From an uncultured Gammaproteobacteria bacterium (GTDB lineage Bacteria > Pseudomonadota > Gammaproteobacteria > Natronospirales > REEB76), in assembly GCA_964584665.1 (NCBI GenBank), contig CAZPAO010000001.1, forward strand, positions 83,681-147,680: DNA of 64,000 nucleotides. Reading direction: 5' to 3'. Below, one piece after another: positions 3,758 to 58,368 of this stretch; the stretch's first letter is position 1; each line of letters opens with the position of its first letter. The notes below the pieces were generated by a model, which did no database searches, was not told the origin of the DNA, and saw nothing but the letters and a program-made list of their open reading frames with translations. The position numbers were made by a program, and so were the translations under genes.

Positions 3758-5109
3758 GCACTGAGGTCTCGGGCTGGTGGCGGCCGGCGACGGCCGCCAC
3801 CGGGCCCGCACTCCTGCCGGTAGAGACCGGCACGGACGTCTCCCGCGGCAGCAAGCTGGCGTTCTGGGCGCTCATGGCCTTCACCTGCCTGCTGCTGCTC
3901 TCGCCCCAGTCCTTCGTACCGGCCTTGGGTGCGCTGCACCTGCCGCTGCTCACGGCGGTGGTGGCCGGGGCGGCATACGTCACGAGCCGGCTCGCGCGGC
4001 ATGCATCGCCGTTCGGCATCCGGCCCGAGGTGCGTATCGCGCTGTTCCTCGCTGCCTGGGCCCTGCTCAGCGTGCCGCTGTCCCTCTGGCCGGGCGGAAG
4101 TGTCGGTTTCTTCTTCGGTATCTATTTCAAGGCGCTCATCGTGTTCTGGCTGCTGACCGGCGTCGTGGACAGCCCGGAGCGCCTCCGGGTCGCCTCCTGG
4201 GTGCTGAGCCTGCTGGCCGCGCCGCTGGCGCTCGCGGCCATCAAGAACTACCTGTCGGGCGCGGGTCAGATGCAGGCCCAGACCCACGGTCTGGACCGGA
4301 TCAGCGGTTATGACGGCTCGCTCACCGCCAACCCCAACGACTTGGCCCTCATGCTAAACCTGATCCTCCCCCTCAGCATCGCGCTGTTCCTGTCCGCCCG
4401 CAGCCTGGTTGCCCGCTGTGTGCTGGCGGGGTTGATCGCCCTGGATGCGGTGGCCATCATCGCGAGCTTCTCCCGCGCCGGCTTCCTGGTGCTGGGACTC
4501 ACCGGTGCCGTCTATCTCGTGATCCTGTTCCGCCGCCGGCGCCACGGTCTCGCCGTGCTGGTACTGGGCGGAGCCCTGGCGGGTGTGGCGCTGTTGCCGG
4601 GGGCTTATCTCGACCGCCTCAGCACCATCACCGACATCAAGGCTGACCAGACTAATTCCGCCCAGACCCGCGCCCGCGACTACCTCACGGCTGCGAAGTA
4701 TGTGGTCGAACATCCCGTCATCGGCGCCGGTGTCGGCATGGACATCCTGGCCCTGAACGACGCGCGCGGAGCCACCTGGACCAAGGTGCATGACGTCTAT
4801 CTCGAATACGCCGTGGACCTGGGTCTGCCGGGCCTGATCCTGTTCCTGTGGTTGCTGCGGGCCATCTTCCGCAGCCTGAAGCGGGCGCGTCGCATAGCGG
4901 CGGCGGATCCGGAAGCGCTGAGCCTGCAATGCCTGCTCGAAGGGATCACCGTGAGCCTGGTGGGATTCATGCTGGCGGCATTGTTCTACCCCGATGCCTA
5001 TCAGTTCTATTTCTACTACATGGGTGGCCTCGCCATCGCCGGCGCGGCCATCGTCACCGCCCGGGACAGCATTCCAGCGGAACGACACGCTGCGGCGGTG
5101 GCTGCTTGA
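3754..5109 (+). CDS. O-antigen ligase/polymerase-like (Wzy_C) polytopic membrane protein
   Basis: About 10 hydrophobic helices and a Wzy_C-like segment SFSRAGFLVLGLTG. GTG start in a GTGA overlap with the upstream stop. Confidence 0.7.
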   Translation: MSTEVSGWWRPATAATGPALLPVETGTDVSRGSKLAFWALMAFTCLLLLSPQSFVPALGALHLPLLTAVVAGAAYVTSRLARHASPFGIRPEVRIALFLAAWALLSVPLSLWPGGSVGFFFGIYFKALIVFWLLTGVVDSPERLRVASWVLSLLAAPLALAAIKNYLSGAGQMQAQTHGLDRISGYDGSLTANPNDLALMLNLILPLSIALFLSARSLVARCVLAGLIALDAVAIIASFSRAGFLVLGLTGAVYLVILFRRRRHGLAVLVLGGALAGVALLPGAYLDRLSTITDIKADQTNSAQTRARDYLTAAKYVVEHPVIGAGVGMDILALNDARGATWTKVHDVYLEYAVDLGLPGLILFLWLLRAIFRSLKRARRIAAADPEALSLQCLLEGITVSLVGFMLAALFYPDAYQFYFYYMGGLAIAGAAIVTARDSIPAERHAAAVAA

Positions 5110-6320
5110 ACGCCGTCAACCCGCTCGCTGTCGGCGTCGAGACCGATCGTATCCGCCTGGTGAAGTTCCTGGCCCAGTTCGGGGTCGGGGGCACCGAGAA
5201 GCAGGTAGCGAACCTGACCAAGCGCATGGACCGCGAAGCCTTCGATCTCAGCTTCGCCTGTCTCAAACGCTGGGGCACCTTGCTGGAGGAGATCGAGGGC
5301 CGCCAGGGCCTCGCGGTCGCCGAATACCCGCTCAGCAGTTTCTACGAACCCAACGCCTTCTGGCAGCAGTTCCGGTTCGCGCGGATGCTGCGCCGCAATG
5401 GGACCCAGATCGTCCACAGCTACAACTTCTACGGCAACATGTTCAGCGTACCGGCCGCGCGGTTGGCCGGCGTGCCCTGCATCGTCGCCTCCATCCGCGA
5501 CATGGGGGTGTACAACACACCATTCCAACTCAAGGCCCAGAGGCTGGTCTGCAAGCTCGCAGACCGGGTGCTGGTGAACGCCGGCGCCATCCGCGACTGG
5601 CTGGTGGAAGAGGGCTACCCGACGCGTAAGATCGAAGTGGTCAGGAACGGCGTGGATACCTCGCGCTTCGTGCCACGCAACGATGGCGCGGCGCTGCGCC
5701 GCGAACTCCAGCTGCCCCCTGGCGTGCCCCTCGTGCTTATGTTGGCGCGCATCAATCCCAAGAAGGGCATCGATACGTTCATCGACGCCGCAGTGCGCAT
5801 ACATGCCCGCCACCCGCAAGCCTATTTCCTGGCGGTGGGTGAGTCCTTCATCCGCGATGCCGATGGCGTCGTGCACGTGGATGCCTCCTACAAGCGTTCC
5901 TTGCAGGAGCAGGTGGACCGGCTCGGCCTCACCGAACGCTTCCGTTTCACGGGTCTGCGCAAGGACGTACCACAGGTGTTGGCCGCCGCCGCGGTGTCGG
6001 TGCTGCCGTCCCTGAGCGAAGGCATCTCCAACACGCTGCTGGAATCCATGGCGGCGGGCGTACCGGTGGTGGCGAGCCGCGTGGGCGGCACACCCGAAGC
6101 CATCACCCACGGCCAGCACGGCCTGCTGGTGGAACCGCAGGACCCGCAGGGTCTGGCTGATGCGGTATGCGCCATCCTCGATGATCCCGCGCTCGCAGAC
6201 CGGCTCAGCCGACAGGGGCGCGAGCGCATGGTGGCCGAATTCTCCTTCGAGGCGGTGGTACGCCGCACCGAAGAGATCTACCGGGAGCTGCTCGCCGAGA
6301 AGACCGGCCGCGCCGCCTAA
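5106..6320 (+). CDS. Glycosyltransferase family 4 (GT-B)
   Basis: C-terminal GT4 signature PSLSEGISNTLLESMAAGVPVVASRVGGTPE. The ORF-track start 4848 lies inside the previous gene. A TTG at 5106 overlaps the upstream stop (cTTGA). The start is uncertain because a downstream GTG is also possible. Confidence 0.8.
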   Translation: MNAVNPLAVGVETDRIRLVKFLAQFGVGGTEKQVANLTKRMDREAFDLSFACLKRWGTLLEEIEGRQGLAVAEYPLSSFYEPNAFWQQFRFARMLRRNGTQIVHSYNFYGNMFSVPAARLAGVPCIVASIRDMGVYNTPFQLKAQRLVCKLADRVLVNAGAIRDWLVEEGYPTRKIEVVRNGVDTSRFVPRNDGAALRRELQLPPGVPLVLMLARINPKKGIDTFIDAAVRIHARHPQAYFLAVGESFIRDADGVVHVDASYKRSLQEQVDRLGLTERFRFTGLRKDVPQVLAAAAVSVLPSLSEGISNTLLESMAAGVPVVASRVGGTPEAITHGQHGLLVEPQDPQGLADAVCAILDDPALADRLSRQGRERMVAEFSFEAVVRRTEEIYRELLAEKTGRAA

Positions 6321-6379
6321 CGACTTCCACGGCCTGTCCCATACCGGCACGGGCCCCTCAAGACTCCTTCGAGGCATAC

Positions 6380-7756
6380 ATGACCGAGATGCTCCAACAC
6401 TGGGTGACCGGCCAGGCCGGTCGCCGCGGCGACGCCACGGCGGTGGTGCTGCAGGACGAACGCCTTAGCTATGGCGAACTGGAGGTGCTCTCCAACCAGT
6501 TGGCCCGGGCTCTCAAGGAGCGAGGCTGCGTACGCGGCGACCGCATCGCGCTGTTCCTGCCGAAGTCGCCCCTGGCCATCGTCTGCATGCTCGGCATCTA
6601 CAAGGCCGACTGCATCTATGTGCCCCTGGACACCACGAGTTCGAGTCAGCGCCTGGCGCGCATCATCGCCGCGAGCGGCAGCCGTTGCATGCTGACCGCT
6701 GCGAGTCTGGCAGCCCAGGTGCGCGAACTGCTCGCCGAACCGGGCCTCCCGTCCCTGCGGGTGGGCTGGCTGGGCACCCCGGCGGATCCCGCCGGCCTGC
6801 CTCTCAGCTTCCGTTTCTCGGATATCGGCATGCTGCCCGGCATACCGGTGCAAAGCGCCTACCGTGCCCAAGACCCTGCCCAGATCCTCTATGACCCCGC
6901 CGACGGCGCGCCGTTGCGGGGCGTGGTGCTGAGCCATGCCAACACGGTGGCAACCGTGGCCTGGGCGGCCCGTCACTTCCGTCTCGGTGAGTCCGACCGG
7001 CTGGCGGGTCACGCCTCGCTTTCGTCCCAGCACTCGCTGTTGGACGTGTTCGGCAGCGCTGCCGCGGGCGCCGAACTGCACCTGGTTCCGGCTGACTGCC
7101 ACCATCTGCCCAAGCGCCTCGCCGCCTGGATACGCGATTCGGGCATCACCCATTGGTCCTCGTCCCCGAGCGTGCTCGACACCATGGCGCGCCTGGATGC
7201 GGTGCAGCCCTGGGACTTCCCGGACCTGCGACGCGTGCTGTGGCACGGCGATGCCTTGCCGGGGGACTCCCTGGGCTACTGGATGGAGCGCCTGCCGCAT
7301 GCGGCCTTCACCGGTCTGCATGGCAGTGCCGAGACCCTCGTCGCCGGCCATCACACCGCGGCGAGCTTCCCGGAAGGGGAGAGCGCATTCCCCATCGGTT
7401 CGGCCGCGGGCGCAGAACTGCTGGTGCTGGACCATAACCTGCAGCCGGTGTCGGCCGGCGCGACCGGCGAACTCTACATCAAGGGCCCGAGCCTGAGCGG
7501 TGGGTACTGGGACGATCCCGAATCCACCGCGCGCATCTTCCCGACGCTGGAGGGGGTGGGGCGTGTGTACCGCAGCGGATTGCAGGCGCGCCTGGGCGAG
7601 GACGGTCTCGTCTACCCCGCCTCAGATGCCAGCGCCGTCGAAGCCGTGGCGTCCGCCTCACCCGATGAGGCTGAGGGGCGGCTGACGCGGCCTTTGCCCG
7701 CCGGACGCTGGAGCGCCTGGCAGGAGCTTCCCGGTGGCGTGGACCGGCCGGTCTAG
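6380..7756 (+). CDS. AMP-dependent synthetase/ligase (adenylate-forming) homolog with degenerate catalytic motifs and no recognisable C-terminal subdomain
   Basis: A1 LSYGEL, A2 YKADCIYVPLD and A6 GELYIKGPSLSGGYW are recognisable. A3 reads ILYDPADGAPLRG instead of YTSGSTGxPKG, and A7 reads YRSGLQAR instead of YRTGDL. A8 and A10 are absent. Confidence 0.7.
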   Translation: MTEMLQHWVTGQAGRRGDATAVVLQDERLSYGELEVLSNQLARALKERGCVRGDRIALFLPKSPLAIVCMLGIYKADCIYVPLDTTSSSQRLARIIAASGSRCMLTAASLAAQVRELLAEPGLPSLRVGWLGTPADPAGLPLSFRFSDIGMLPGIPVQSAYRAQDPAQILYDPADGAPLRGVVLSHANTVATVAWAARHFRLGESDRLAGHASLSSQHSLLDVFGSAAAGAELHLVPADCHHLPKRLAAWIRDSGITHWSSSPSVLDTMARLDAVQPWDFPDLRRVLWHGDALPGDSLGYWMERLPHAAFTGLHGSAETLVAGHHTAASFPEGESAFPIGSAAGAELLVLDHNLQPVSAGATGELYIKGPSLSGGYWDDPESTARIFPTLEGVGRVYRSGLQARLGEDGLVYPASDASAVEAVASASPDEAEGRLTRPLPAGRWSAWQELPGGVDRPV

Positions 7757-7767
7757 GCGAGGCAGAC

Positions 7768-8304
7768 ATGGAACTGATACCTCTCGATGACGAAGGGACC
7801 CTGCGGCTGGTGTCCCGCTGGCTGGCGGACGGCGAGGACCATCCCTGGCTCCACCTCGGTGGCAGCGAGCAGCGTCTCAGCGCCGGCAACATGCGGCGCA
7901 TGATCGATGACGAGGCGCACATTGTGCGCGTCTTCACCTCGGACGAGGCGGGCGTGCCCATCGGCCTCGTCGCCCTGAGCAGCGTGAACCCGGACTTCCG
8001 CACCGCGGTGTTATGGGCATTCCTCGCCGACCGTGGCCATGAGCCGGGCAGTTACCTGCGCCGCGCCGCTTCCGCGATGCTGACCCTGGGTTTCTCGGAA
8101 CACGGTCTCGAGTGCATCAACGCATGGACGCTCGAGGGTAACCAGGATTCCCTGCGCGTACTCCAGGAACTTAACTTCAGGCCCATCGGGCGCGAACGCC
8201 GCGCCGAGTCCAAGGATGGACGCGATTTCGACAAACTGCTCTTCGAACTCATGGCGGCTGAACACAGGAGTGACGATGCACGTGACGCCCGCACTGCTGG
8301 ATAG
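7768..8304 (+). CDS. GNAT-family N-acetyltransferase (RimJ/RimL-like)
   Basis: 178 aa. The C-terminal half (LECINAWTLEGNQDSLRVLQELNFRPIGRER) resembles Acetyltransf_3-type GNATs. Confidence 0.6.
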   Translation: MELIPLDDEGTLRLVSRWLADGEDHPWLHLGGSEQRLSAGNMRRMIDDEAHIVRVFTSDEAGVPIGLVALSSVNPDFRTAVLWAFLADRGHEPGSYLRRAASAMLTLGFSEHGLECINAWTLEGNQDSLRVLQELNFRPIGRERRAESKDGRDFDKLLFELMAAEHRSDDARDARTAG

Positions 8305-8593
8305 GGTCTACGGACTGTTCGAGCGGGTCCTGAACCAACCGGCCCCGGCGCCGGAGGCTGATCTGTTCGAGAGCGGCACGCTGGATTCGCTCGAGTTCAC
8401 CAACCTGCTGTTGGTGCTGGACCGCGAGTTCGACCTGAAGCTCAGTTTCCAAAACATGAACCTGGAGTGTTTCCGCTCCCTGGGCAGCATCGCCCGCTTC
8501 GTCGCCGGCCACACCGGCCTCGATGCGGCACTGACTGGGCTCAGCGGAGACGATGTGGACCGGCCGCTGCTGGTGCGGTTGGAGAACAGCTGA
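8276..8593 (+). CDS. Acyl/peptidyl carrier protein (DltC/ACP-like)
   Basis: Phosphopantetheine attachment motif GTLDSLEF in a ~100-aa acidic protein. ATG 8276 is preceded by AGGAG. The ORF-track start 8216 overlaps the GNAT gene. Confidence 0.75.
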   Translation: MHVTPALLDRVYGLFERVLNQPAPAPEADLFESGTLDSLEFTNLLLVLDREFDLKLSFQNMNLECFRSLGSIARFVAGHTGLDAALTGLSGDDVDRPLLVRLENS

Positions 8594-9822
8594 TGATGGC
8601 AAGGCGCACGGAGACTGGAATGCAGATCGATACCTATATACCGAACCCCCTCACCTCGCCTCGGCGTCGCGGGCACGGCCATGGCGAGCGTCCCGCGCTC
8701 AAGGTGGAGTGCATCGAGGACACGGACACCCTGACCTTGCTGCGTCCGGAATGGGACGCGCTGCTGAAGGCGAGTGGGGCCGACTGCCTGTTCCTCACCT
8801 GGGAGTGGATGGCCACATGGTGGAAGCACCTTGCCCAGGGCCGCCGCCTCAACGTGCTGGTGGTGCGACGCGGCGATGAGCTCCTGGCCATCGCGCCCCT
8901 GGCCTTGCGCCCGCCGCAGCTCGGGCGTCTGCTGCCGTTCCGGACCCTCGAGTTCCTGGGCATGGGCACGGTGGGCTCCGACTACCTTGACATCATCACC
9001 CGGCCGGACGAGGAGGAACGGACGCTGAAGGCTTTGGCCGAATACCTCCAGCAGAACAAGTTCGTCATCGAGTTCACCCGCGTAAAGCCCGGTTCCCGGC
9101 GCATCGCTGCGCTGGTGTCGCTGCTCGGTCAGGCGGGCTGGCATTCCCATCAAGCCGTCACCGACAACTGCCCCTACATACCCCTCACCGGCCACAGCTG
9201 GGAGTCCTACATGTCAGGGGTGAGTGGGCCGCACCGGCGCAACGTGCGCCGCCGTCTCAAGATCCTCCACGAGAAGTTCGGGCAGGTGGAGTTCCAGCAG
9301 GCACGTACCGAGGAGGAGCGGGAAGCCTGTTTCCAGGCCTTCGTCGAGTTGCATGCCAAACGCTGGTCCGGTGACGAGAGTTCCACCGCGTTCACCGGGC
9401 CGCAAGTGCAGGCTTTCCACGAAGAGTTCAGCCGTCTGGCGCTGGCCCAGGGCTGGTTGCGGCTCTGCGTCCTGAAGCTGGACGGCAAACCCGTCGGCGC
9501 GACCTATTCATTCCGCTACGGCGAAGCCTATTACTATTACCAGGCGGGATATGACCCGGCCTACAACGAATACAGCGTAGGCCTCGTGACGCTCGCGCTC
9601 TTGGTGCAGACCGCGATCGGCGAGGGTGCCTGCGAGTTCGACATGCTGCACGGCTACGAGGAATACAAGTTCCTGTGGACCCGCGCCGGCCGTGACCTCG
9701 CCCGGGTGCGCTGCTTCCCGCCCAATGCCGCTGGCCTCATGTACCGGCAGGCCATGAACCTGCGACAAGGCATCAAACGCGTCGCTACCTGGCGTTGGCG
9801 CCTGCAGGAGTTGAAGGCATGA
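8593..9822 (+). CDS. CelD/BioF2-like (FemAB-related) GNAT acyltransferase
   Basis: N-terminal LRPEWDALL...FLTWEWMATWWKH and C-terminal YYYYQAGYDP...FDMLHGYEEYKFLW are typical of the cellulose-biosynthesis CelD / PEP-CTERM-locus FemAB-like family. TGATG junction with the carrier-protein stop. Confidence 0.7.
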   Translation: MMARRTETGMQIDTYIPNPLTSPRRRGHGHGERPALKVECIEDTDTLTLLRPEWDALLKASGADCLFLTWEWMATWWKHLAQGRRLNVLVVRRGDELLAIAPLALRPPQLGRLLPFRTLEFLGMGTVGSDYLDIITRPDEEERTLKALAEYLQQNKFVIEFTRVKPGSRRIAALVSLLGQAGWHSHQAVTDNCPYIPLTGHSWESYMSGVSGPHRRNVRRRLKILHEKFGQVEFQQARTEEEREACFQAFVELHAKRWSGDESSTAFTGPQVQAFHEEFSRLALAQGWLRLCVLKLDGKPVGATYSFRYGEAYYYYQAGYDPAYNEYSVGLVTLALLVQTAIGEGACEFDMLHGYEEYKFLWTRAGRDLARVRCFPPNAAGLMYRQAMNLRQGIKRVATWRWRLQELKA

Positions 9823-12465: not shown

Positions 12466-14385
12466 ATGTGCGGTATAGCAGGCATATTCAGCACCAGCGA
12501 ACGCGGCGTGCAGCAGGCGGAGGTGCAGGCCATGTGCGACGCCATCTATCACCGAGGTCCCGACGACGCGGGTTACTACGTGCGCGGCAGGGTGGGACTG
12601 GGAATGCGGCGCCTCAGCATCATCGACCTGGCCACCGGCCACCAGCCGGTGCAGAACGAGGATGGCAGTGTGCGAGTGGTGCTGAACGGCGAGATCTACA
12701 ACTACCGTGAGTTGCGCAAGGAGCTTGAGGCCCGCGGCCACCGCTTCTATACCGCCACCGACACCGAGACCATCGTGCACCTCTATGAGGAATACGGCGC
12801 AGATTGCGTCACCAAGTTGCGCGGCATGTTCGGCCTCGCGGTCTGGGACGAGCGGCGCCAGAGCCTGCTTCTGGCCCGGGATCGCCTCGGCATTAAGCCC
12901 CTGTACTATGCCGAGGTGGATGGCCGGGTGCTATTCGGTTCAGAGCTGAAGGCGATCCTGGAACTCCCGGATGTGGAACGGGAGCTGAACTGGAGCTCGG
13001 TGAACCATCTGTTCACCAGCCTGCACACACCCAGCTCCGAGAGCATCATCGCCGGCGTGCACAAGCTGCCGCCGGGCCATACCCTGTTGCTGCAGGCGGA
13101 CGGTGCCCAGCGCCTGACGCGCTACTGGGACGTGGAGTTCGCCCCGGACTACACCCACGACGAGCAATATTTCGCGGAGCATCTGCGGCAGCTCCTCGAG
13201 GAGTCTGTGGACCTGCATCTGGTGAGCGACGTGCCCGTGGGCGCGTTCCTCAGCGGCGGCCTCGATTCTAGTTCCGTGGTCGCCATCATGGCGCGCCGCA
13301 GCGAACGCCCGGTCAAGACCTTCTCCATCGGTTTCTCCGAGCGGGCATATGACGAGACCCATGCGGCCCGGCGCGTGGCCGAGCAGTTCGGCACCGAGCA
13401 TACCGAGCTGATCATGAACCCGGACGTGGAGCAGCTGATCCAGGATATCGTCTGGCACCTGGACGAGCCCTTCGGCGATTCCTCCGCCATCCCCACCTAC
13501 ATGGTCTCCAAGCTCGCCTCCCAGCAGGTCAAGGTCGTGCTCTCCGGTGACGGCGGCGACGAGCTGTTCGCGGGCTACGACCGCTATAGGGTGGAAGAGC
13601 GCGAGCGCCGCTACGAATACGCGCCGGCTTCGTTGCGGCGCATGCTCGGCCATATCGGCGCCTCCATGCCCGAGGGCGCCAAGGGCCGTAACTTCCTGCG
13701 GCACCTGGCCTTGTCCGGTTCGGAGCGCTACCTCGATTCGTCGACCCTCTTCAAGTCGGACCAGAAGCTCCGCCTGTTCCGTCCTGAGGCCGCGGCGTTA
13801 TTTGCAGGCCATGATCCATGGCATGAGGCCCGCGCGAGCCTTAAGCATTACGACGGTGACTGGCTCTCAGCGCTGCAACGCTGGGACATCAAGAGCTACC
13901 TGCCGCTGGACATCCTCACCAAGGTGGACCGCATGAGCATGGCCCATTCCATCGAGGCCCGCGTGCCGCTGCTGGACCACAAACTGGTGGAGTTCGCTGC
14001 CACCATTCCGCCGGAGTTCCGCCTGCGCAACGGCGAGACCAAGAGCATCTTCAAGCGCGCGATGCGTGGGATCCTGCCGGACGAGATCATCGATAGGCCG
14101 AAGCAGGGTTTCGCCGTCCCCCTTGGCGCCTGGTTCCGCGGCAGGCTCTCTGGTTTCGCGCGTGAATTGCTGCTGGACGGTAGCGCCCGCTGCCAGGTGT
14201 TCGATCGGGCCTACATCAGTGAACTCCTGGACATGCACGACCGGGGCCGCGATCTCAACATGCAGCTCTGGACGCTGATGTCCTTCGAGCTTTGGTGTCG
14301 CCGCTTCCTGGATACACCCGCTCCCGCTGCGCGTTTCCAACCGGTGCCCCTCAGCACCGTCTCCATGACGGGGGTTAACGCGTGA
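12466..14385 (+). CDS. Asparagine synthase (glutamine-hydrolysing) family amidotransferase, EPS-locus type (EpsI/WbpS-like), copy 1
   Basis: N-terminal nucleophile MCGIAGIF and PP-loop FLSGGLDSS. 639 aa. Confidence 0.9.
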   Translation: MCGIAGIFSTSERGVQQAEVQAMCDAIYHRGPDDAGYYVRGRVGLGMRRLSIIDLATGHQPVQNEDGSVRVVLNGEIYNYRELRKELEARGHRFYTATDTETIVHLYEEYGADCVTKLRGMFGLAVWDERRQSLLLARDRLGIKPLYYAEVDGRVLFGSELKAILELPDVERELNWSSVNHLFTSLHTPSSESIIAGVHKLPPGHTLLLQADGAQRLTRYWDVEFAPDYTHDEQYFAEHLRQLLEESVDLHLVSDVPVGAFLSGGLDSSSVVAIMARRSERPVKTFSIGFSERAYDETHAARRVAEQFGTEHTELIMNPDVEQLIQDIVWHLDEPFGDSSAIPTYMVSKLASQQVKVVLSGDGGDELFAGYDRYRVEERERRYEYAPASLRRMLGHIGASMPEGAKGRNFLRHLALSGSERYLDSSTLFKSDQKLRLFRPEAAALFAGHDPWHEARASLKHYDGDWLSALQRWDIKSYLPLDILTKVDRMSMAHSIEARVPLLDHKLVEFAATIPPEFRLRNGETKSIFKRAMRGILPDEIIDRPKQGFAVPLGAWFRGRLSGFARELLLDGSARCQVFDRAYISELLDMHDRGRDLNMQLWTLMSFELWCRRFLDTPAPAARFQPVPLSTVSMTGVNA

Positions 14386-15419
14386 GTCTCATAGCCCGAC
14401 TGACCCAGGGACTGCGCATGTCCAACGCCGCCCAGGTGCTGCTGGATGACTCGCGCGGGCGCGAGCCAGCGCCGCTGGAGGCCCTGCAGCCTGTACCCGT
14501 GTCGGCGCCCGCCAAGCCGCTGACTGTGGTCTACATCGCCGGTGACGGCCGCAGCGGCTCGACGTTGCTGGACCGGCTCATCGGCGCCTATCCAGGGACC
14601 TTCTCCTGCGGCGAACTCGGCAACCTGCTGCAATCCGCGGCGGCTGACGATGAGTTCTGCGCCTGCGGCAGCCTCGCGGCCAGCTGCGGTTTCTGGCGCG
14701 AGGTGCTGACCCGCTGGGGCGCCTCCGTGCCGGGGTTCTCTGAACGCGAGTATCGCTTGCTGCAGCTGCGCTACGAACGGCTCAGGTCTCTACTCAGGCC
14801 CGGCAGCGACATGACCTTCGACAGCGAAAACTTCGCGCGCTACGCGGAATATACCCGCGCGCTGTTCACGACCATCGCCGATCTCTCCGGCGCCAGCGTG
14901 ATCATCGATTCCTCCAAGGGACCGGCTCGCGCTCTGGCCCTGTCCCGGGTGCCGGGACTGGATATCCGCATGCTGCACCTGGTGCGGGATGTGCGCGGCG
15001 TGGCCTACTCCTTGCGTAATCCAAACCGGGGCAAGCCGAAGGAGGGTGCGCCGGTCAAGAAGCGCAGCAACCTGCGCTTCGCCGGGACCTGGGCCACCAT
15101 CAACTATTTCTGTGAGTACGTGCGGCCCAAGATCGCCGGCCCCAACCTGTTCCTGCGCTACGAGGACTACACCGCGGACCTGGATGCGACTCTCGCTCAG
15201 GTGGCGGAGTTGCTCAGCACCCAGCGCATCGGCTTCGAAGCGAGCTCGGGGCACCTCATGAAGCAGGGCCATCAGGTGGCTGGCAATGACGGACGTATGC
15301 GCCCGGTGCAACGCATCTCGACGGACGAAGCCTGGCGCCGCCAGTTCGGTTTCGTCATGCGGAAGGGTCTGTACCTGCTGGTCCTCCCGCTCATGCTCCG
15401 CTACCGCTACCGCCCCTGA
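14382..15419 (+). CDS. Sulfotransferase family protein
   Basis: 5'-PSB-like loop GDGRSGSTLL and 3'-PB-like HLVRDVRGVAYS (RDxRxxxxS). GTGA overlap with the asnB-like stop. ATG 14418 is an alternative start. Confidence 0.7.
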   Translation: MSLIARLTQGLRMSNAAQVLLDDSRGREPAPLEALQPVPVSAPAKPLTVVYIAGDGRSGSTLLDRLIGAYPGTFSCGELGNLLQSAAADDEFCACGSLAASCGFWREVLTRWGASVPGFSEREYRLLQLRYERLRSLLRPGSDMTFDSENFARYAEYTRALFTTIADLSGASVIIDSSKGPARALALSRVPGLDIRMLHLVRDVRGVAYSLRNPNRGKPKEGAPVKKRSNLRFAGTWATINYFCEYVRPKIAGPNLFLRYEDYTADLDATLAQVAELLSTQRIGFEASSGHLMKQGHQVAGNDGRMRPVQRISTDEAWRRQFGFVMRKGLYLLVLPLMLRYRYRP

Positions 15420-15447
15420 CCCAAGCCATTCCGGCGAGGAAGATCCC

Positions 15448-16572
15448 ATGCATGTCACGGCCATCGTGCTCGCGCGCGCAGGTGCTGGTGCACTCGCCCT
15501 AGCGCTGACTTCTGGCACCGCGGCGCTCGCCGGCTGGAACGAGCCGGCCCTGCCGCGCTACCAGGTCATCGACCTCGGCACCCTCGGCGGCGCCAGCAGC
15601 ACAGCCCAAGCGCTCAACGACAAGGGTCAGGTGGTGGGTTGGTCCGAGACCGCCTCTGGCACCCGCCATGCGTTCATCTATGACCACGGCATGATGCAGG
15701 ATCTGGGGACCCTCGTCGGTGGCAGCCATAGCTATGCCACCGGCATCAATGAGCACGGCCAAGTGGTCGGCTACAGCGGGATCAACGCATTCGGCTCCCA
15801 ATTCCCCGAGATAGATCAGGGGTTCGTCTGGGACCCGACCGGCATGCGCAGCCTGGGCGCCTTGTTCTGCCCCTGTTCCTACAACGACCGCTACGGCGCC
15901 AGCAGCGGCTATGCGATCAACGACAAGGGTTGGGTATCGGGTTCCTCCGAGACGGTGCGCGGCTCCTGGGTTCTGCATGCGGCCCTCTGGCGGGATGGCG
16001 TGGCTGAGGATCTGGGCGGCGGTGCGGGCGATTGGTCCATAAGCCGCAGCTTCGGCATGAACGCGCGCGGTTTCGTGGTGGGCGACTATGCGCAGGACGC
16101 CGGCAAGGTCAACGCTTACGAACGCGAGGCTAGCCTGTGGCGCGGAAGCACCCGCACCGCTCTCGGCACCTTGCCGGGTTCCACCTCGAGCATCGCGCTG
16201 GCTGTGAACCTGCAGGGAGCCGTGGTGGGCTGGTCCGGGACCTTCGATGGTGCCGCTTCCCATGCCTTCATCTGGCGCCGCGGCAGCATGCAGGATATCG
16301 GCGCACTGAAGCACGATGCCAATAGCGCCGCCCTCGCCATAGACGCCGCCGGCGACGTGGTGGGCTGGTCCGGCGCCTCGCGCAGCGGGGACTCCCACGC
16401 CTTCCTGTGGCGGTTCGGCGAGATGCTGGACCTCAACCAGTCCATACCCAGCTATTCCGGCTGGGTGCTGAACGAAGCCGCCGGCATCAACCGCCGCGGC
16501 GAGATCGTCGGCACCGGTCTGCACGACGGCGAGACCCATGCTTTCCTACTCATACCGGTGATCAAACCATGA
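15448..16572 (+). CDS. Secreted HAF-family extracellular repeat protein
   Basis: Signal peptide MHVTAIVLARAGAGALALALTSGTAALA. Repeated units end in HAFIY / HAFIW / HAFLW / HAFLL and are each followed by G.MQDLG-type segments. The ORF-track start 15286 overlaps the previous gene. Confidence 0.7.
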   Translation: MHVTAIVLARAGAGALALALTSGTAALAGWNEPALPRYQVIDLGTLGGASSTAQALNDKGQVVGWSETASGTRHAFIYDHGMMQDLGTLVGGSHSYATGINEHGQVVGYSGINAFGSQFPEIDQGFVWDPTGMRSLGALFCPCSYNDRYGASSGYAINDKGWVSGSSETVRGSWVLHAALWRDGVAEDLGGGAGDWSISRSFGMNARGFVVGDYAQDAGKVNAYEREASLWRGSTRTALGTLPGSTSSIALAVNLQGAVVGWSGTFDGAASHAFIWRRGSMQDIGALKHDANSAALAIDAAGDVVGWSGASRSGDSHAFLWRFGEMLDLNQSIPSYSGWVLNEAAGINRRGEIVGTGLHDGETHAFLLIPVIKP

Positions 16573-17651
16573 GCACGGCTGATAACTATCGTCCCCGCGT
16601 CACTCTGGTGGCGGCGGGCATGGAGATCCTCGGCGGGCAGGGGGTGCAGGCGCTCGCGCTGGTGCAGGGCCTGCGGCGCGAAGGCTATGCCGTGAGTTTC
16701 CTGCCCATCAATCCGCGCTTCCCCGTGGGGCTACGCTGGCTCAGGGAACTGCGCTACGTGCGCACCTTCTTCAACCAACTCTTCTACCTGCCGAGCTTGC
16801 TGGCGCTGCGCCGTAGCGACGTGGCTCACGTGTTCTCCGCTTCATATTGGTCGTTCCTGCTGGCGCCGGTGCCGGCGCTGCTGGTTGCCAGGCTCTTCGG
16901 CAAGCGCTCAGTGCTGCACTACCACAGCGGCGAAGCGGAGGATCACCTCTCCCGCTGGGGCGCGCTCGTGCATCCCTGGTTGCATCTCGCGGACGAGATC
17001 GTGGTGCCCTCCGAATATCTGCATGAAGTGTTCGCCCGCTACGGCTATCACACGAGAGTGGTGAAGAACGTGGTGGATACCGCACGCTTCGCCTACCGGG
17101 AGCGCAGCGACCTGCGGCCGCGGCTGCTGTCCGTTCGCAACCTGGAGCCCCACTACAGGGTGGACACGGTGATCGAGGCTTTCGCCTTGCTCAAGAAACG
17201 TTACCCAGAGGCGACCCTGGCGGTGGCCGGTTACGGCAGCCAGGAAGCCGAGCTGCGTGAGCTGGCCGCCGGCCTCGGCGTGAGCGGCATCCGCTTCCTC
17301 GGCCGCGTGGAGCCGGAGAACGTGCCTGCCCTCTATGCGGACGCGGACATATTCGTCAACGCCGCGGTCATCGACAACCAGCCCGTCTCGGTGCTGGAAG
17401 CCTTCGCCTCCGGCCTGCCGGTGGTGAGCACCGGCACCGGCGACATCGCCGCCATGCTGCGCCATGGTGAAGCCGGGCTGCTGGTCCCTCCGGGCGATCC
17501 ACCGGCCATAGCCCAGGCAGTCACGAGCCTCCTGGAGCAGCCGCAGCGTGCCGTGGGGATCGCGCGGCGTGCCCGCGCGGAAGTTGAACTCTATACGTGG
17601 TCAAACATCTCGGCCGACTGGGCCGACGTCTATCGCAAGGAAGCCGCATGA
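16569..17651 (+). CDS. Glycosyltransferase family 4
   Basis: GT4 C-terminal signature NAAVIDNQPVSVLEAFASGLPVVSTGTGD. ATGA overlap with the upstream stop. Confidence 0.8.
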   Translation: MSTADNYRPRVTLVAAGMEILGGQGVQALALVQGLRREGYAVSFLPINPRFPVGLRWLRELRYVRTFFNQLFYLPSLLALRRSDVAHVFSASYWSFLLAPVPALLVARLFGKRSVLHYHSGEAEDHLSRWGALVHPWLHLADEIVVPSEYLHEVFARYGYHTRVVKNVVDTARFAYRERSDLRPRLLSVRNLEPHYRVDTVIEAFALLKKRYPEATLAVAGYGSQEAELRELAAGLGVSGIRFLGRVEPENVPALYADADIFVNAAVIDNQPVSVLEAFASGLPVVSTGTGDIAAMLRHGEAGLLVPPGDPPAIAQAVTSLLEQPQRAVGIARRARAEVELYTWSNISADWADVYRKEAA

Positions 17652-19900
17652 AGATCGATAACCTGTTGCGTGCAGATCTCTCGGATATCGCCAGCCGGGG
17701 CTGGCAGGAAGTCTGGCGCACCGTAGACCGCATGGCGGTAGGTGGAGCCGTGCCAGAAGGGGCCCGCAACCTGTCTCTATTCGAGCATCTGGCTCCGCAG
17801 CCGGTGGCGCGCCTGAGTCGCCGAAGCGACGGCACACCGCAGGACCCCGCCCAGGCTGAGTTCGAGCATTTCCGTCGCCATGGCGCGGTGCGGTTCTTCG
17901 CCGGCCCTGGTGACGCACGCCTGCCCCAGTTCTTCGAGGAACGCCTGCCCGACGCACGCCTCCGCAGCGTCGCCACGGCAGATGCGCTCTGCGACCGCAG
18001 CTTCAGCTTGCTGGGGCACCGCGCCCTGTTCCTGGATGCGCCCTTGGACTGGCACCGGGACGCGGTCTCGGGCCAGCGCGCGCCGCTGGTACATTGGAGC
18101 CGGATCAACCCTCTCGACGCCGAGCGGGTGGGGGACAGCAAGGTCACCTGGGAGCTCAACCGGCACCAGTGGTTGGTGCACCTCGGCCAGGCTTACCGCC
18201 TTACCGGCGACGAGCGCTATTCAGAGATCTTCGCCGCCAGCGTGCGCGACTGGATGCAGGCCAACCCGGCGGGCATGGGCATCAACTGGGCCAGCAGCCT
18301 GGAGGTGGCTTATCGCCTCATCAGCTGGTGCTGGGCCCTGAACCTGTTCCGCGATTCGGCGGTGCTCACGCCGCGCCTGTACGTGGAGATGCTGGGCTGG
18401 CTCAAGGCCCACGCCGGGCACGTGGAGCGCTATCTTTCACACTACTTCTCACCCAACACCCATCTCACCGGCGAGGCCTTGGGCCTCTTCTATGCCGGCG
18501 TGCTGTTCCCGGAACTGCCGCGGGCCGCCCGCTGGCGCAAGCTCGGCGCGAAGATCCTCATCCGGCAGCTGCCGCGCCAGGTGCATGGGGATGGCGTCTA
18601 CTTCGAGCAGTCCACCTGTTACCAGCGCTACACCGCCGAGATATACCTGCACTTCCTGATATTGGCCGAGCGCAACGACGTGACGTTACCTGATGCGGTG
18701 AAGCAACGGGTGGCGTTGATGCTGGACAACCTGTTGGCGGTCTGCCGTCCGGATGGCAGCATGCCGCAGATCGGCGATTCCGACGGCGGCCGCCTGCTGC
18801 CGCTGGCGCAACGCGGCGCCGACGACTGCCGCGACGTGTTCTCGCTGGCAGCGGTGTTCTTCAAGCGGCCCGATTATGCCTGGGCGGCCCGTGGCACCTC
18901 ACCGGAAGTGGCTTGGCTCTTCGGCACCAGCGGCTGCAAGGTCCTGGACGGCTTGCAGCCGGCGCCGCCCGCCGATGCTCCTTCACAACTCTATGCCGAG
19001 GGTGGGCATGCGGTGATGCGCAGCGGATGGGAACGCCATGCCCACCAGATGCTCTTCGACACGGGCCCCCTGGGTTGCCGCGTGAGCGGCGGCCACGGCC
19101 ATGCGGACCTCCTCAGCATCCAGTGCAGCGCCTTCGGCCAAGCCCAACTGGTGGATCCGGGCACCTACTGCTACACCGGCAACGCCCACTGGCGCGACCA
19201 TTTCCGGGGCAGTTCCGCCCATAACACCGTGGTGGTGGACCACAAGAGCCAGGCGGTGCCGGTGGGCCCGTTCTCCTGGCAGCGCCGCCCCGCGGCAAGC
19301 CTCAAGGATTGGATCTCGACCGCTGCCTATGACTATGCCGATGCGGAGCACGGCGCCTATCGCCGTCTGCGGGACCCGGTGCAGCACCGGCGTCGTGTGC
19401 TGTTCGTGAAATCGCGCTACTGGGTGGTGGTGGACGATCTCACGGGCGCCGATGCACATTCGGTGGAACTCATGTTCCAGTTCGCGCCCATGCCGGTCAG
19501 CCTGGATGCGGACGGCTGGGCCCGCAGCGGCGGTCCCAATGGGCGCGGCTTGTTCCTGCGGGCATTCTCCGCCGCCACCCTGCAAGCCAAGGTGAGCCAG
19601 GGCGGGCTCGATCCCATCCGCGGCTGGATCTCGCCGGACTACGGTCTGCGCGTGCCGGCGCCCGTCCTGAGCTACGCCACGGTAGAGAAACTGCCCTTGC
19701 GCATCGTCACCCTCATCGTACCCCGCGAAGCGGGGGAGACCACGCCGCCGGACATCACCGCGGTGCGGCCCGCCGGCAGCTCCCTGAGCCTGCTGTTCGC
19801 GGACGGACGCGAGACGGTACGGGTGGACGACGACCAGATCATGGTGGATTGCGCCGACGGCTCCTCCATCATCCCTCTCAACGACCGGAACGAGGCCTGA
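17648..19900 (+). CDS. Heparinase II/III-like protein (alginate-lyase-like N-domain plus Hepar_II_III C-domain)
   Basis: WELNRHQWLVHLGQAYRLTGDERY...INWASSLEVAYRLISWCW and GHGHADLLSIQCSAFGQAQLVDPGTYCY motifs. ATGA overlap with the upstream stop. Confidence 0.78.
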   Translation: MKIDNLLRADLSDIASRGWQEVWRTVDRMAVGGAVPEGARNLSLFEHLAPQPVARLSRRSDGTPQDPAQAEFEHFRRHGAVRFFAGPGDARLPQFFEERLPDARLRSVATADALCDRSFSLLGHRALFLDAPLDWHRDAVSGQRAPLVHWSRINPLDAERVGDSKVTWELNRHQWLVHLGQAYRLTGDERYSEIFAASVRDWMQANPAGMGINWASSLEVAYRLISWCWALNLFRDSAVLTPRLYVEMLGWLKAHAGHVERYLSHYFSPNTHLTGEALGLFYAGVLFPELPRAARWRKLGAKILIRQLPRQVHGDGVYFEQSTCYQRYTAEIYLHFLILAERNDVTLPDAVKQRVALMLDNLLAVCRPDGSMPQIGDSDGGRLLPLAQRGADDCRDVFSLAAVFFKRPDYAWAARGTSPEVAWLFGTSGCKVLDGLQPAPPADAPSQLYAEGGHAVMRSGWERHAHQMLFDTGPLGCRVSGGHGHADLLSIQCSAFGQAQLVDPGTYCYTGNAHWRDHFRGSSAHNTVVVDHKSQAVPVGPFSWQRRPAASLKDWISTAAYDYADAEHGAYRRLRDPVQHRRRVLFVKSRYWVVVDDLTGADAHSVELMFQFAPMPVSLDADGWARSGGPNGRGLFLRAFSAATLQAKVSQGGLDPIRGWISPDYGLRVPAPVLSYATVEKLPLRIVTLIVPREAGETTPPDITAVRPAGSSLSLLFADGRETVRVDDDQIMVDCADGSSIIPLNDRNEA

Positions 19901-19903
19901 GCC

Positions 19904-21835
19904 ATGTGCGGCATAGCAGGCATCCTGAAGTTCGATGCCACGGCGGCGGTGGAATACGTGCGTCTCTCGCGCATGCGCGATGTACTCGGTCACCGGGGAC
20001 CCGATGACAGCGGCATCGTGATACGCGGCCGCGCGGGTCTGGCACACAACCGGCTCTCCATCATAGACCTCAGCAGCGGCCAGCAACCCATGGCGGACAC
20101 CCATGGCGCCTGGATCAGCTTCAACGGGGAGATCTATAACTTCCGCGAACTGCGCAAGCAGCTGGAAGCGCGCGGTTGCCACTTCGCGACGAATTCTGAC
20201 ACCGAGGTGATCCTGCAGGCCTACCAGGTCTATGGCGAGGACTGCGTGAAGCATCTGCGCGGCATGTTCGCTTTCGCCATCTGGGACAAGAAGCGCCAGA
20301 AGCTGTTCCTGGCCCGGGACCGGCTCGGCATCAAGCCCCTGTACTACACCTCCAATGGCGGCGAGCTGGTCTTCGCCTCGGAGATCAAGGCGATCCTCAC
20401 TTCCGGAGCCCTGGCGCCGGCTTTGAATGAGGCCATTCTCCCTGAATACCTGGCCACGCGCTTCGTCGCGGGCGACGAGACCTTCTTCCAGGGCGTGCGC
20501 AAGCTCATGCCCGGCCATACTCTGAGTTGGACCCCCGTGGAGGGCCTGCGCCTGACCCGCTACTGGAAGCTGCCGGACCAGCTATCTGACGCAGACGTGC
20601 CCTTCGAGGAGCACGCGCGCGAAGTGCGCCGCCGCCTGGAGGAGGCGGTCAGCATCCATCTCATGAGCGACGTGCCGCTGGGTCTTTTCCTCTCCGGCGG
20701 CATCGACTCCAGCGCGCTCGCCGCGCTCATGGCGCCCATGGTCAGCAAGCCGATCCAGAGCTTCGCCGTGGGTTTTGCAGAGCATGGTTACAATGAACTG
20801 GACTACGCGAGGCTGATGGCGAAATCGGTGGGTGCCGAGCACCGCGACATCCTGCTCTCCAGCTCCGACTTCCTGCGGGCACTCCCGCGGATGGTCTGGC
20901 ACGAGGATGAGCCCATCGCCTTCCCCTCCAGCATCTGCCTGTACCACGTGTCGCGCCTGGCCAAGCAGCACGTCAAGGTGGTGCTGACCGGGGAGGGCGC
21001 CGATGAGCTGTTCCTGGGCTACAACAAGTATCGCGTCACTGCCTGGAACGAGCGGCTCGGCCGGCCGTATTGGGCCACCATGCCGAGAGCGGTCCAGAAC
21101 GGCATCCGCCGCCTGGTGCAGAGCTGCCCCAGGGGCGTGCGCCGCTACGCGGAGCGCAGCTTCCTCGGACCTGAGCCCGGTATCCGCGGGCTCTTCTACG
21201 AGAACTTCGCCGTGTTCCCCGCCGCGCACCAGAGCCGCCTGCTCACGGGCTCCGGTCCGCGCCGCGATCCCTATGCCGAGGGCCTGCGCCGCTATGCCCA
21301 AGCTCCGGGCGGCAGCCTTGAGCGCATGAGCCATGCGGACATCCAGACCTACATGGTGGAACTGCTCATGAAGCAGGACCAGATGAGCATGGCGGCATCG
21401 CTCGAGAGCCGCGTGCCGTTCCTTGACCACGAACTGGTGGAATACGTGGCTGCCATGCCCGCCAAACACAAGCTGCAGGGCTTCCAGACGAAATCGGTGT
21501 TGCGCGCCGCCGTGAAAGACATCCTGCCCAAGGAGATCCTGACGCGCGGCAAGATGGGCTTCCCTGTCCCGGTGGGGCGCTGGTTGCGCGGCAGCCACGC
21601 CTCGCTGCTGGACGAGCTGGTGCTCAGCCAACGCGCCCTCGGCCGCGGCCTGTTCGATTCCGACTATGTCCGGCAGCTCGCCGCCGAGCATAAGCGCGGC
21701 GATGCGGAGCACGGCGATCGCCTGTGGATGCTCATCAACCTCGAACTCTGGCAGCGGATGTTCCTGGAAGGTGAAGCCCCCGACGCGATCCTGGACGAGG
21801 CATTGTTCAATCCCAGCTTGGGTGTCGCGGCCTGA
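19904..21835 (+). CDS. Asparagine synthase (glutamine-hydrolysing) family amidotransferase, copy 2
   Basis: MCGIAGIL N-terminus and FLSGGIDSS PP-loop. 643 aa. Paralog of 12466-14385. Confidence 0.9.
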   Translation: MCGIAGILKFDATAAVEYVRLSRMRDVLGHRGPDDSGIVIRGRAGLAHNRLSIIDLSSGQQPMADTHGAWISFNGEIYNFRELRKQLEARGCHFATNSDTEVILQAYQVYGEDCVKHLRGMFAFAIWDKKRQKLFLARDRLGIKPLYYTSNGGELVFASEIKAILTSGALAPALNEAILPEYLATRFVAGDETFFQGVRKLMPGHTLSWTPVEGLRLTRYWKLPDQLSDADVPFEEHAREVRRRLEEAVSIHLMSDVPLGLFLSGGIDSSALAALMAPMVSKPIQSFAVGFAEHGYNELDYARLMAKSVGAEHRDILLSSSDFLRALPRMVWHEDEPIAFPSSICLYHVSRLAKQHVKVVLTGEGADELFLGYNKYRVTAWNERLGRPYWATMPRAVQNGIRRLVQSCPRGVRRYAERSFLGPEPGIRGLFYENFAVFPAAHQSRLLTGSGPRRDPYAEGLRRYAQAPGGSLERMSHADIQTYMVELLMKQDQMSMAASLESRVPFLDHELVEYVAAMPAKHKLQGFQTKSVLRAAVKDILPKEILTRGKMGFPVPVGRWLRGSHASLLDELVLSQRALGRGLFDSDYVRQLAAEHKRGDAEHGDRLWMLINLELWQRMFLEGEAPDAILDEALFNPSLGVAA

Positions 21836-23956: not shown

Positions 23957-24785
23957 GTTGCACCGCCCCGGCGTACCGCGAGTGGTGCTCATGTGCCATG
24001 AGGGCGACCGCATCGACACCGAAGGCCTCACTGCCTGGATCGCCACCAGCATGGATCTGGTGGGTGTCATCAAGCTGCGCGAAGGCCGTGAGCGGATGTG
24101 GCAGCGGGTCCGCCGCGAGATCCGCCGCGTGGGCCTGCTGCGTTTCCTGGACGTATTGGCCTTCCGGCTCTACTACAAGGTCTTCCTGGCTCGCCGCGAT
24201 ACTGAATGGATGGAAGACGAACTCGCGCGCCTGCATGCGCGCTATCCGGTCGATCCTACCGGCGTCATGACCCTCGTCACCAGCGAGCCCAACGGGGCCG
24301 CCGTGAAGTCATTCCTGAAATGGCTGAAGCCGGATCTCATGGTGGCCCGCTGCAAGACCATCCTGAAGCAGGACATTTTCAGCCTGCCGCGCCACGGCAC
24401 CTATGTACTGCATCCCGGCATCTGCCCCGAATACCGCAATGCCCATGGCTGCTTCTGGGCCCTGGTGAACCGCGACCTGGAGCGTGTGGGCATGACCCTG
24501 CTGCGGGTGGATCCGGGTGTGGACACGGGCCCGATGCTGCTGCAGTCCTCCTACGGGTTCGATGAGCTCAAGGAATCCCATACGGTGATGCAGTACCGGG
24601 TGGTGCTGGAGAACCTGGACAAGGTCGCCGAGCAGCTCAAGGCCGCCTGGCGCGGCCATTCTGAGCCCCTACCGGTGGCCAAGCGCAAGTCCGCCACCTG
24701 GGGCCAGCCCTGGTTGAGCGCCTACCTGCGCTGGAAGCACGCGGCGCGGCGCAGCGGCGCCCAGCAGCAGCGGGCCACGTCATGA
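23949..24785 (+). CDS. Formyltransferase-like protein (Fmt/ArnA N-domain family) with a variant active-site motif
   Basis: VLHPGICPEYRNAHGCFWAL...VDPGVDTGPML aligns to the family segment HxSLLPxYRG...D.G.DTG. A GTG start at 23949 overlaps the upstream stop. ATG 23991 is an alternative but would remove the first beta-strand. Confidence 0.6.
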   Translation: MVELHRPGVPRVVLMCHEGDRIDTEGLTAWIATSMDLVGVIKLREGRERMWQRVRREIRRVGLLRFLDVLAFRLYYKVFLARRDTEWMEDELARLHARYPVDPTGVMTLVTSEPNGAAVKSFLKWLKPDLMVARCKTILKQDIFSLPRHGTYVLHPGICPEYRNAHGCFWALVNRDLERVGMTLLRVDPGVDTGPMLLQSSYGFDELKESHTVMQYRVVLENLDKVAEQLKAAWRGHSEPLPVAKRKSATWGQPWLSAYLRWKHAARRSGAQQQRATS

Positions 24786-58355: not shown

Positions 58356-58368
58356 TGAGGAGCGAGAC

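Follow-up and report, generated by a model that had tools for sequence, protein, structure and literature searches.

Introduction

Why would a bacterium keep an intact gene for an adenylate-forming enzyme whose catalytic motifs are gone? The question is raised by an open reading frame (ORF) in a polysaccharide gene cluster on contig CAZPAO010000001.1 of an uncultured Gammaproteobacteria bacterium, within a 64-kb stretch of DNA that was analysed as a whole and is called the window below. The first-pass annotation had described the product as an adenylate-forming homologue with mutated core motifs and no C-terminal subdomain, and had left two readings side by side: a pseudogene in decay whose frame has stayed open by chance in GC-rich DNA, or a pseudoenzyme retained as a scaffold or partner for the adjacent GNAT, carrier and CelD-like proteins. 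Our analyses demonstrated that the gene is real and under selection and is not a pseudogene. Its ancestor encoded a stand-alone adenylation enzyme that was part of a tailoring cassette; the machinery for adenylation has since been lost, and selection now acts on another part of the core. The protein is probably a non-catalytic, core-only member of the ANL superfamily (acyl-CoA synthetases, nonribosomal peptide synthetase adenylation domains, luciferases), kept as a binding or scaffold subunit of a polysaccharide-modification module.

Results

An intact gene for an adenylation core

The ORF is intact as first described, with 458 codons plus a stop on the forward strand, a GAGG Shine-Dalgarno-like sequence 5 nt before the ATG, and a GC content at third codon positions (GC3) of 0.84, like that of the neighbouring genes. 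All motif strings quoted earlier for it were recovered in the protein, namely LSYGEL (A1, residues 29-34), YKADCIYVPLD (A2, 74-84), YDPADGAPLRG (A3, 171-181), GLHGSAE (A5, 312-318), GELYIKGPSLSGGYW (A6, 363-377) and YRSGLQ (A7, 397-402). An antisense ORF of 372 amino acids (aa) lies across the gene at 6317-7435 on the reverse strand; such ORFs are common in GC-rich DNA, and this one shows no coding sign.

The fold is that of an adenylation (A) domain core. Pfam AMP-binding (PF00501) matched residues 12-377 at 200.5 bits (cut-off 29.9) across profile positions 4-384 of 384, and the same search returned no match to the C-terminal domain PF13193 anywhere in the 458-aa protein; across Pfam and NCBIfam, AMP-binding families were the only ones matched. 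The AlphaFold model, which rests on 119 homologues, reached a predicted local distance difference test (pLDDT) value of 90.3 for residues 1-416 and fell below 50 for residues 417-458. Its best Foldseek matches were A-domain cores of nonribosomal peptide synthetases (NRPS), including TycA 5n81 (template modelling score 0.90 by target), PheA 1amu and teicoplanin A1 (both also at about 0.9), together with DltA 3e7w, and a PDB sequence search agreed in placing NRPS A domains and DltA on top.

NCBIfam ranked TIGR01733 first, followed by DltA and NRPS models, and none of them reached its curated cut-off. The protein scored 219.5 bits against TIGR01733 (cut-off 317.4), where an intact orthologue scored 385.1, and 139.7 and 144.9 bits against the DltA models TIGR01734 (559.85) and NF003417 (476). 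Against the exosortase-A ligase model TIGR03098 it scored 108.2 bits (cut-off 592.35), and the intact orthologue 272. The canonical A3 pattern [ST][ST]G[ST][ST]GxPKG is replaced by DPADGAPLRG, and the A5 (NxYGPTE) and A7 (Y[RK]TGD) motifs of TIGR01733 by GLHGSAE and YRSGL. The Asp missing from A4 is presumably the one that binds the substrate alpha-amino group, Asp235 by standard NRPS A-domain numbering.

Orthologues and purifying selection

A database search recovered about 30 cluster representatives at 51-74% identity, all with intact frames and all with a wrecked P-loop. Together with the window protein they are called the dead clade below, a label that refers to the lost adenylation motifs. 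Twenty-four of these proteins are 452-481 aa long and lack the C-terminal subdomain, and seven, of 526-528 aa, retain it; two of the relatives, P0012 and P0005, come from metagenome-assembled genomes (MAGs) labelled Gammaproteobacteria bacterium. The window protein is encoded identically on eight contigs of separate assemblies, and L173, a closer relative than the others, has GLHGSPE, YRSGLQ and RRWSAWQELPG in common with it. Sequencing error, which the first-pass annotation had kept in view as a source of the odd motifs, is thereby discounted. Within the dead clade the position of the A7 Asp is occupied by D, H, S, E, A or L according to sub-lineage, and E318 is the sole residue of A5 that is still invariant, with parts of A6 also conserved.

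The ratio of nonsynonymous to synonymous substitution (dN/dS) of the dead gene was 0.07-0.30 at dS 0.7-1.3 (pairwise NG86), and 0.12-0.29 for the core alone. In the same genome pairs these values were indistinguishable from those of the flanking GT4, Wzy, flippase, GNAT and FemAB-like genes (0.10-0.22 for GT4), and intact orthologues gave 0.07-0.43 (24 pairs). Of the features that define a pseudoenzyme operationally, the protein shows two: it lacks residues essential to the chemistry of its family, and it is maintained by purifying selection.

Shift of constraint within the core

Column entropies were compared between 31 dead-clade proteins and 88 intact relatives. The old motifs have been released: entropy rose from 0.36 bits in intact relatives to 1.98 bits in the dead clade at the A3 P-loop, from 0.39 to 1.77 bits at A4, and from 0.01 to 1.09 bits at A5. 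Constraint was likewise lost at 259-266, 291-296 and 340-347, which line the pocket. In the opposite direction, conservation was much higher in the dead clade at residues 3-6, 28-50 and 106-163, and entropy in the last of these segments fell from about 2.4 to about 0.6 bits. The most variable part of the intact relatives, residues 3-50 plus 106-163, is the most conserved part of the dead clade.

This reversal held when divergence was matched (mean identity 0.64-0.66 in the intact groups vs 0.68 in the dead clade), with the variability of segment 106-163 at about 2.0 times the core average in the intact groups and 0.71 times in the dead clade. Synonymous divergence was not lowered in the segment, so the constraint lies on the protein. 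Near-invariant positions in or near it are R113, R115, E116, R127, R145, D148, R162 and D165. We regard residues 3-50 and 106-163 as a candidate new functional surface. The old motifs vary freely with no new conserved replacement, an observation that speaks against the old pocket housing a non-canonical active site.

Loss of the C-terminal subdomain

Beyond the core, the protein ends in a tail that had been described as about 60 low-complexity, Ala/Pro-rich residues; the composition is correct (20% Ala, 13% Pro) and the length is 46 residues. The tail evolves rapidly (dN/dS 0.32-1.0, with indels between orthologues). A frameshift that would restore the subdomain was considered and ruled out: tblastn with intact homologues, over all frames of the window, and a three-frame translation of 7440-8320 found no trace of the subdomain.

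At the very end of the protein, 16 residues (RWSAWQELPGGVDRPV) align with the A10-flanking strand SRWRAWDELPKNAAGRIDR of full-length relatives. Because these terminal residues are homologous to that strand, the subdomain was removed by an internal in-frame deletion and not by simple truncation. The deletion took the catalytic Lys and spared a conserved W-x-A-W motif. Loss of the A8 hinge and of the A10 Lys, as first proposed, is therefore real, and the further claim that the A10 region is missing altogether fails, since its flanking strand survives. Across truncated forms W444, A446 and W447 are at least 90% conserved. Linker sequences differ by sub-lineage, and G-W-x-A-W-x-E is common to all. 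As a separate observation, the motif in the form G-W-[RS]-A-W-[DEQ]-E was kept through every independent subdomain deletion, within a disordered and fast-evolving tail.

In the full-length dead group, A8 has changed from QIKSRGYRIE to MQSGGRRIE and the A10 Lys to Arg, and the C-terminal subdomain is under purifying selection (omega, equivalent to dN/dS, 0.119). A neighbour-joining tree built on the core gathered all the dead proteins into a single clade, whose sister is the intact P0031-P0036 group; the full-length dead group was nested among the truncated groups. Taken at face value, this topology indicates a single P-loop loss followed by several independent in-frame deletions of the subdomain, and the differing linkers fit independent deletions.

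Gene neighbourhood and intact loci

The polysaccharide cluster spans roughly 150-33,000 of the window. It begins with genes for a priming sugar transferase, a CofD/YvcK-like protein, a nucleotide-sugar dehydrogenase, a Wzy-like polymerase and a GT4 glycosyltransferase, reaches the dead A gene, and continues with the GNAT, the carrier protein, Acetyltransf_6, a MOP flippase, a deacetylase, an AsnB-like amidotransferase, a sulfotransferase-like protein and more genes (Table 1). In every dead-clade locus with enough downstream sequence a GNAT gene comes after the dead gene, and the GNAT family motifs are the same in dead and intact loci. The GNAT gene begins before the dead gene ends in L007, L008 and L009, and before the A gene ends in the intact locus L004 (overlaps of 20-26 nt).

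Table 1. Features in and around the dead adenylation-domain gene, in window coordinates.
Feature	Position	Strand	Basis or remark
GT4 glycosyltransferase gene, directly upstream	5106..6320	+	marks conserved polysaccharide-locus context
59-bp intergenic gap at the place of the luciferase-like (LLM) oxidoreductase gene in intact loci	6321..6379	.	synteny with L004
Dead adenylation-domain homologue gene	6380..7756	+	458 aa; intact ORF: adenylation core plus short tail
Adenylation core fold (Acore), residues 1-412	6380..7615	+	AlphaFold, Foldseek, core dN/dS 0.12-0.29
Clade-specific conserved segment, residues 106-163	6695..6868	+	column entropy
Degenerate A3 P-loop	6890..6922	+	YDPADGAPLRG where FTSGSTGxPKG expected
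Degenerate A4	7022..7036	+	SSQHS where HFDLS expected; read from alignment
Degenerate A5	7313..7333	+	GLHGSAE where NLYGPTE expected
Degenerate A7	7568..7585	+	YRSGLQ; ribose-binding Asp to Leu
Disordered tail in place of C-terminal subdomain, residues 413-458	7616..7756	+	pLDDT <50
Tail motif RWSAWQEL, remnant of strand before A10	7706..7729	+	aligns with RWRAWDELPKNAAGRIDR of full-length forms
GNAT gene (Acetyltransf_3, RimJ/RimL-like)	7768..8304	+	dN/dS 0.08-0.35
Carrier protein (PP-binding) gene	8276..8593	+	phosphopantetheine Ser kept (LDSLEF)
Acetyltransf_6 (FemAB/CelD-like) gene	8593..9822	+	start overlaps carrier-protein stop by 1 nt

The intact positional orthologue P0031 is 57% identical to the window protein, and every one of its motifs is canonical. 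Its locus (L004) has the same gene order, with an LLM oxidoreductase gene directly upstream of the A gene and a 391-aa protein, called X here, between the carrier protein and Acetyltransf_6. The first-pass annotation had placed an active acyl-CoA ligase at this position in related exosortase-type loci; an intact enzyme does stand there, but it is an amino-acid adenylation protein (TIGR01733, 385 bits) and not the ligase of TIGR03098, and no exosortase gene turned up in the scanned ORFs of the 64-kb window, though one could lie beyond it. Among named genomes, the nearest that carries an intact orthologue is a Sulfurifustis sp. MAG. A scan of metagenomes added four further dead-clade loci (L091-L094) and one intact orthologue with an LLM gene (L095).

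Of about 170 related loci, 154 have a canonical P-loop. An LLM gene lies within 2.5 kb of the A gene in 100 of the 127 intact loci with enough flanking sequence vs none of 12 dead loci, and no dead locus has X. Neither LLM nor X could be detected by tblastn anywhere in the 64-kb window, and no second adenylating enzyme was found in it. In most loci, wherever its gene is present, the carrier protein retains the phosphopantetheine Ser. Two dead-clade loci, L008 (9409-11187) and L093 (about 7298-9173), have no carrier-protein gene, and the GNAT gene is followed there directly by Acetyltransf_6. The dead gene in these loci had a dN/dS of 0.136. Because it stays under selection where the carrier-protein gene is missing, the carrier protein is not an obligate partner, and of the earlier proposal of a retained pseudoenzyme the retention and the catalytic death are supported (low dN/dS, freely varying motifs), with that one partner removed.

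Several observations on the intact loci are recorded in their own right. LLM, a stand-alone A domain and a carrier protein, often with the 391-aa X, form a cassette at 6971-11570 of L004 and in about 100 other loci. It is spread over Acidobacteriota, Gemmatimonadota, Nitrospira, Azospirillum and others, with examples in L012 (Sulfurifustis sp.), L022 (Nitrospira moscoviensis) and L085 (Azospirillum sp.). X showed a weak Acetyltransf_9 match only and no NCBIfam match, and LLM matched no NCBIfam model at cut-off. In addition, P0063 (559 aa), otherwise canonical, has the P-loop TSGCAGTPRG (Ser to Cys, Thr to Ala, Lys to Arg), which may be an independent early step toward inactivation. The CofD/YvcK-like gene (1395-2447), of a UDP-GlcNAc-binding protein family, is kept in all syntenic loci examined (L004, L007-L009, L171), an unusual place for the family.

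Other genes in the window

Further genes of the cluster were also noted. Two AsnB-type glutamine amidotransferases (12466-14385 and 19904-21835) resemble the XrtA/PEP-CTERM amidotransferase TIGR03108, at 670 and 535 bits against a cut-off of 817, and are probably uronamide-forming enzymes. A heparinase II/III-like lyase (Hepar_II_III_N plus Hepar_II_III_C, 17597-19900) stands within the biosynthetic cluster, which also has a sulfotransferase-like gene at 14382-15419. The pair suggests a sulfated, uronic-acid-containing polymer with its own trimming enzyme. A secreted-looking HAF-repeat protein (15286-16572) ends in ...HAFLLIPVIKP, with no obvious PEP-CTERM motif; HAF repeats usually go with PEP-CTERM anchors. 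Because the listed start lies within the upstream sulfotransferase-like gene, an internal Met near 15445 is probably where the protein truly begins.

Others have little or no family assignment. A 380-aa protein (23643-24785) matches a formyltransferase domain at residues 219-317 only, and its N-terminal ~200 aa match no family. The long ORFs at 26941-28701 (586 aa) and 57273-58664 (reverse strand, 463 aa) have no NCBIfam match, the first having no Pfam match either. A 1025-aa protein (33329-36406, reverse strand) showed a weak TafC-family fimbrial match only and is followed on the same strand by a NarL-type response regulator (36680-37420) and a histidine kinase (38790-39722).

Discussion

The history that we propose begins with a stand-alone amino-acid adenylation enzyme of the DltA/NRPS A-domain type, which would have worked in a polysaccharide-modification cassette together with an LLM oxidoreductase, a GNAT, a carrier protein and the 391-aa X. 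In one gammaproteobacterial lineage the adenylation chemistry would have been lost once, with the P-loop, the A4 substrate Asp, A5, the A8 hinge and the A10 Lys, and the A7 Asp would have gone in the window protein and in several sub-lineages. The LLM and X genes, presumably strictly dependent on the product, would then have disappeared from every dead-clade locus. The C-terminal subdomain, by then useless, would have been removed several times independently, and the carrier-protein gene dropped from two loci. Throughout, the N-terminal core was kept under normal purifying selection on other residues (3-50, 106-163 and the W-x-A-W tail motif). The protein itself would have no catalytic role and would serve what is left of the polysaccharide-modification machinery as a binding or scaffolding subunit; its likeliest partners would be the adjacent GNAT and/or the FemAB-like acyltransferase, contacted through the newly constrained surface.

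Parts of this account go beyond direct observation: from the comparative evidence we infer the absence of any catalysis, the binding or scaffold role and the identity of the partners. Several points weigh against it. First, in the window the dead gene and the GNAT gene are separated by an 11-nt gap with no overlap, and GNAT is missing from many intact loci, which means that an ancestral complex of A protein and GNAT was not required. The GNAT search returned 17 stand-alone proteins only and no A-GNAT fusion. Second, the dN/dS ratios are crude pairwise estimates at fairly high dS, and the phylogeny is a single neighbour-joining tree without support values. Third, that the newly conserved segment forms a surface patch is an assumption, and the GNAT and the FemAB-like acyltransferase are partners that we infer. 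Fourth, the Ser retained in the carrier protein hints that some thioester chemistry may continue through another loader.

Among the alternatives, the one that survives best, although we judge it unlikely, holds that the core gained another catalytic or small-ligand-binding role, with a coenzyme A or pantetheine thioester, a nucleotide sugar or an acidic polymer as ligand, and that the conserved residues mark a new site and not a protein-protein interface. In favour of such a role, residues 3-50 and 106-163 have come under strong constraint, with several Arg, Asp and Ser positions near-invariant, the carrier-protein Ser is kept in most loci, and the overall dN/dS is as low as in real enzymes. 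However, the conserved segment contains no known catalytic motif, the old pocket (A3, A4, A5, residues 259-266 and 340-347) varies freely, the function persists without the carrier protein, and Pfam and NCBIfam show AMP-binding families only.

It is highly improbable that the protein still adenylates at a non-canonical site and loads the adjacent carrier protein. The fold is intact, E318 of A5 and parts of A6 are conserved, the neighbouring carrier protein has its Ser, and the gene is under purifying selection; against this, orthologues vary at the P-loop, the A4 Asp and the A7 Asp, and no new conserved solution has emerged. The C-terminal subdomain with the A8 hinge and the A10 Lys is gone entirely, and in ANL enzymology this subdomain is required for both half-reactions. 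Moreover, the TIGR01733 cut-off is missed, and the gene persists where the carrier-protein gene is missing.

Slightly less credible still, and rejected here, is the idea that the ORF is retained merely to bring ribosomes to the downstream GNAT gene (translational coupling or polarity), the protein itself being irrelevant. The 3' end does overlap the GNAT start by 20-26 nt in L004, L007, L008 and L009, and it was preserved by the independent deletions, yet coupling predicts a dN/dS near 1 through the gene body, where the core shows 0.12-0.29, and in the window, L171 and L173 the gene is conserved nonetheless with gaps of 8-11 nt and no overlap. A decaying pseudogene with a frame open by chance is the least credible of all, since the lost catalytic motifs, the low-complexity tail and the readiness of GC-rich DNA to yield long spurious ORFs such as the antisense one are outweighed by dN/dS of 0.07-0.30 across about 450 codons at dS 0.7-1.3, intact frames in about 30 lineages, an in-frame GC3 of 0.84, the constraint gained at residues 106-163, and subdomain deletions that were every time in frame and retained the tail motif.

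The reading of a retained, non-catalytic subunit can be set beside known systems. DltA, which loads the free carrier protein DltC for the D-alanylation of cell-envelope polymers, and the NRPS A domains of TIGR01733 share the same fold with clear homology and are the best NCBIfam and PDB matches; as in the Dlt system, a small carrier protein is adjacent here (DltC-like, 27 bits), the locus is one for a surface polysaccharide, and the positional orthologues look fully functional. The dead protein differs from these enzymes in lacking the P-loop, the A4 Asp, the A7 Asp, A8, the A10 Lys and the C-terminal subdomain, and it falls under every family cut-off. The exosortase-A ligase of TIGR03098 is likewise an ANL enzyme of exopolysaccharide loci, and neighbours in the window resemble the XrtA/PEP-CTERM families stp2, EpsB_2, eps_aminotran_1 and PEP_O_lig_1, all under cut-off; the score of the dead protein is nevertheless far below the cut-off of the ligase family (108 vs 592), and the window scan found no exosortase.

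Degenerate A domains are also found inside NRPS megasynthases, such as the 'dA' of module 2 in Schizosaccharomyces pombe Sib1 and those of the albicidin, ramoplanin and enduracidin lines; several of their core motifs are gone, and another A domain, acting in cis or in trans, supplies their carrier domains (PMC2644324, PMC8949500). Like the dead protein, they have lost core motifs and are retained. However, they are locked in a multidomain chain whose neighbouring domains require it to stay whole, whereas the dead protein is encoded by a free-standing gene in a polysaccharide locus, has lost its subdomain, shows shifted constraint and persists without the carrier protein. Our search of the literature on ANL or adenylation pseudoenzymes and on LLM/A/carrier cassettes in exopolysaccharide loci returned papers on E1 enzymes and on NRPS-embedded degenerate A domains only, and in it we found no report of a dead A protein that is free-standing, lacks the subdomain, is maintained by selection and is encoded in a polysaccharide locus.

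Pseudoenzymes in general are catalytically dead homologues that serve as scaffolds, allosteric partners or binders. With them the dead protein shares lost catalytic residues, a kept fold, purifying selection and constraint that has moved; it differs from established ones in that its inactivity and non-catalytic role are deduced from sequence comparison. To our knowledge, ANL or adenylation domains are not among the commonly listed pseudoenzyme families. A broader proposal would make the dead clade an undescribed family of free-standing ANL pseudoenzymes. After a single death and repeated loss of the subdomain, the core would have been exapted, by way of the newly constrained surface, into a non-catalytic subunit on which the remaining tailoring enzymes depend, and the sampled lineages would include every intermediate. 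We hold the chances of this proposal being right and being wrong to be about equal.

These findings have consequences for annotation and for the biology of the family. Automatic pipelines label dead-clade proteins 'AMP-binding protein', 'amino acid adenylation domain-containing protein' or 'NRPS component F', and an aminoacyl or acyl decoration of the polysaccharide inferred from such labels would be wrong. The intact LLM/A/carrier-protein/X cassette is widespread, and its product appears to be uncharacterised. In addition, the loci offer a staged series from enzyme to pseudoenzyme: intact, dead and full-length, dead and core-only, and core-only without the carrier protein. Furthermore, an adenylation-core surface able to bear a non-catalytic function would be relevant to NRPS engineering and to the degenerate A domains of megasynthases.

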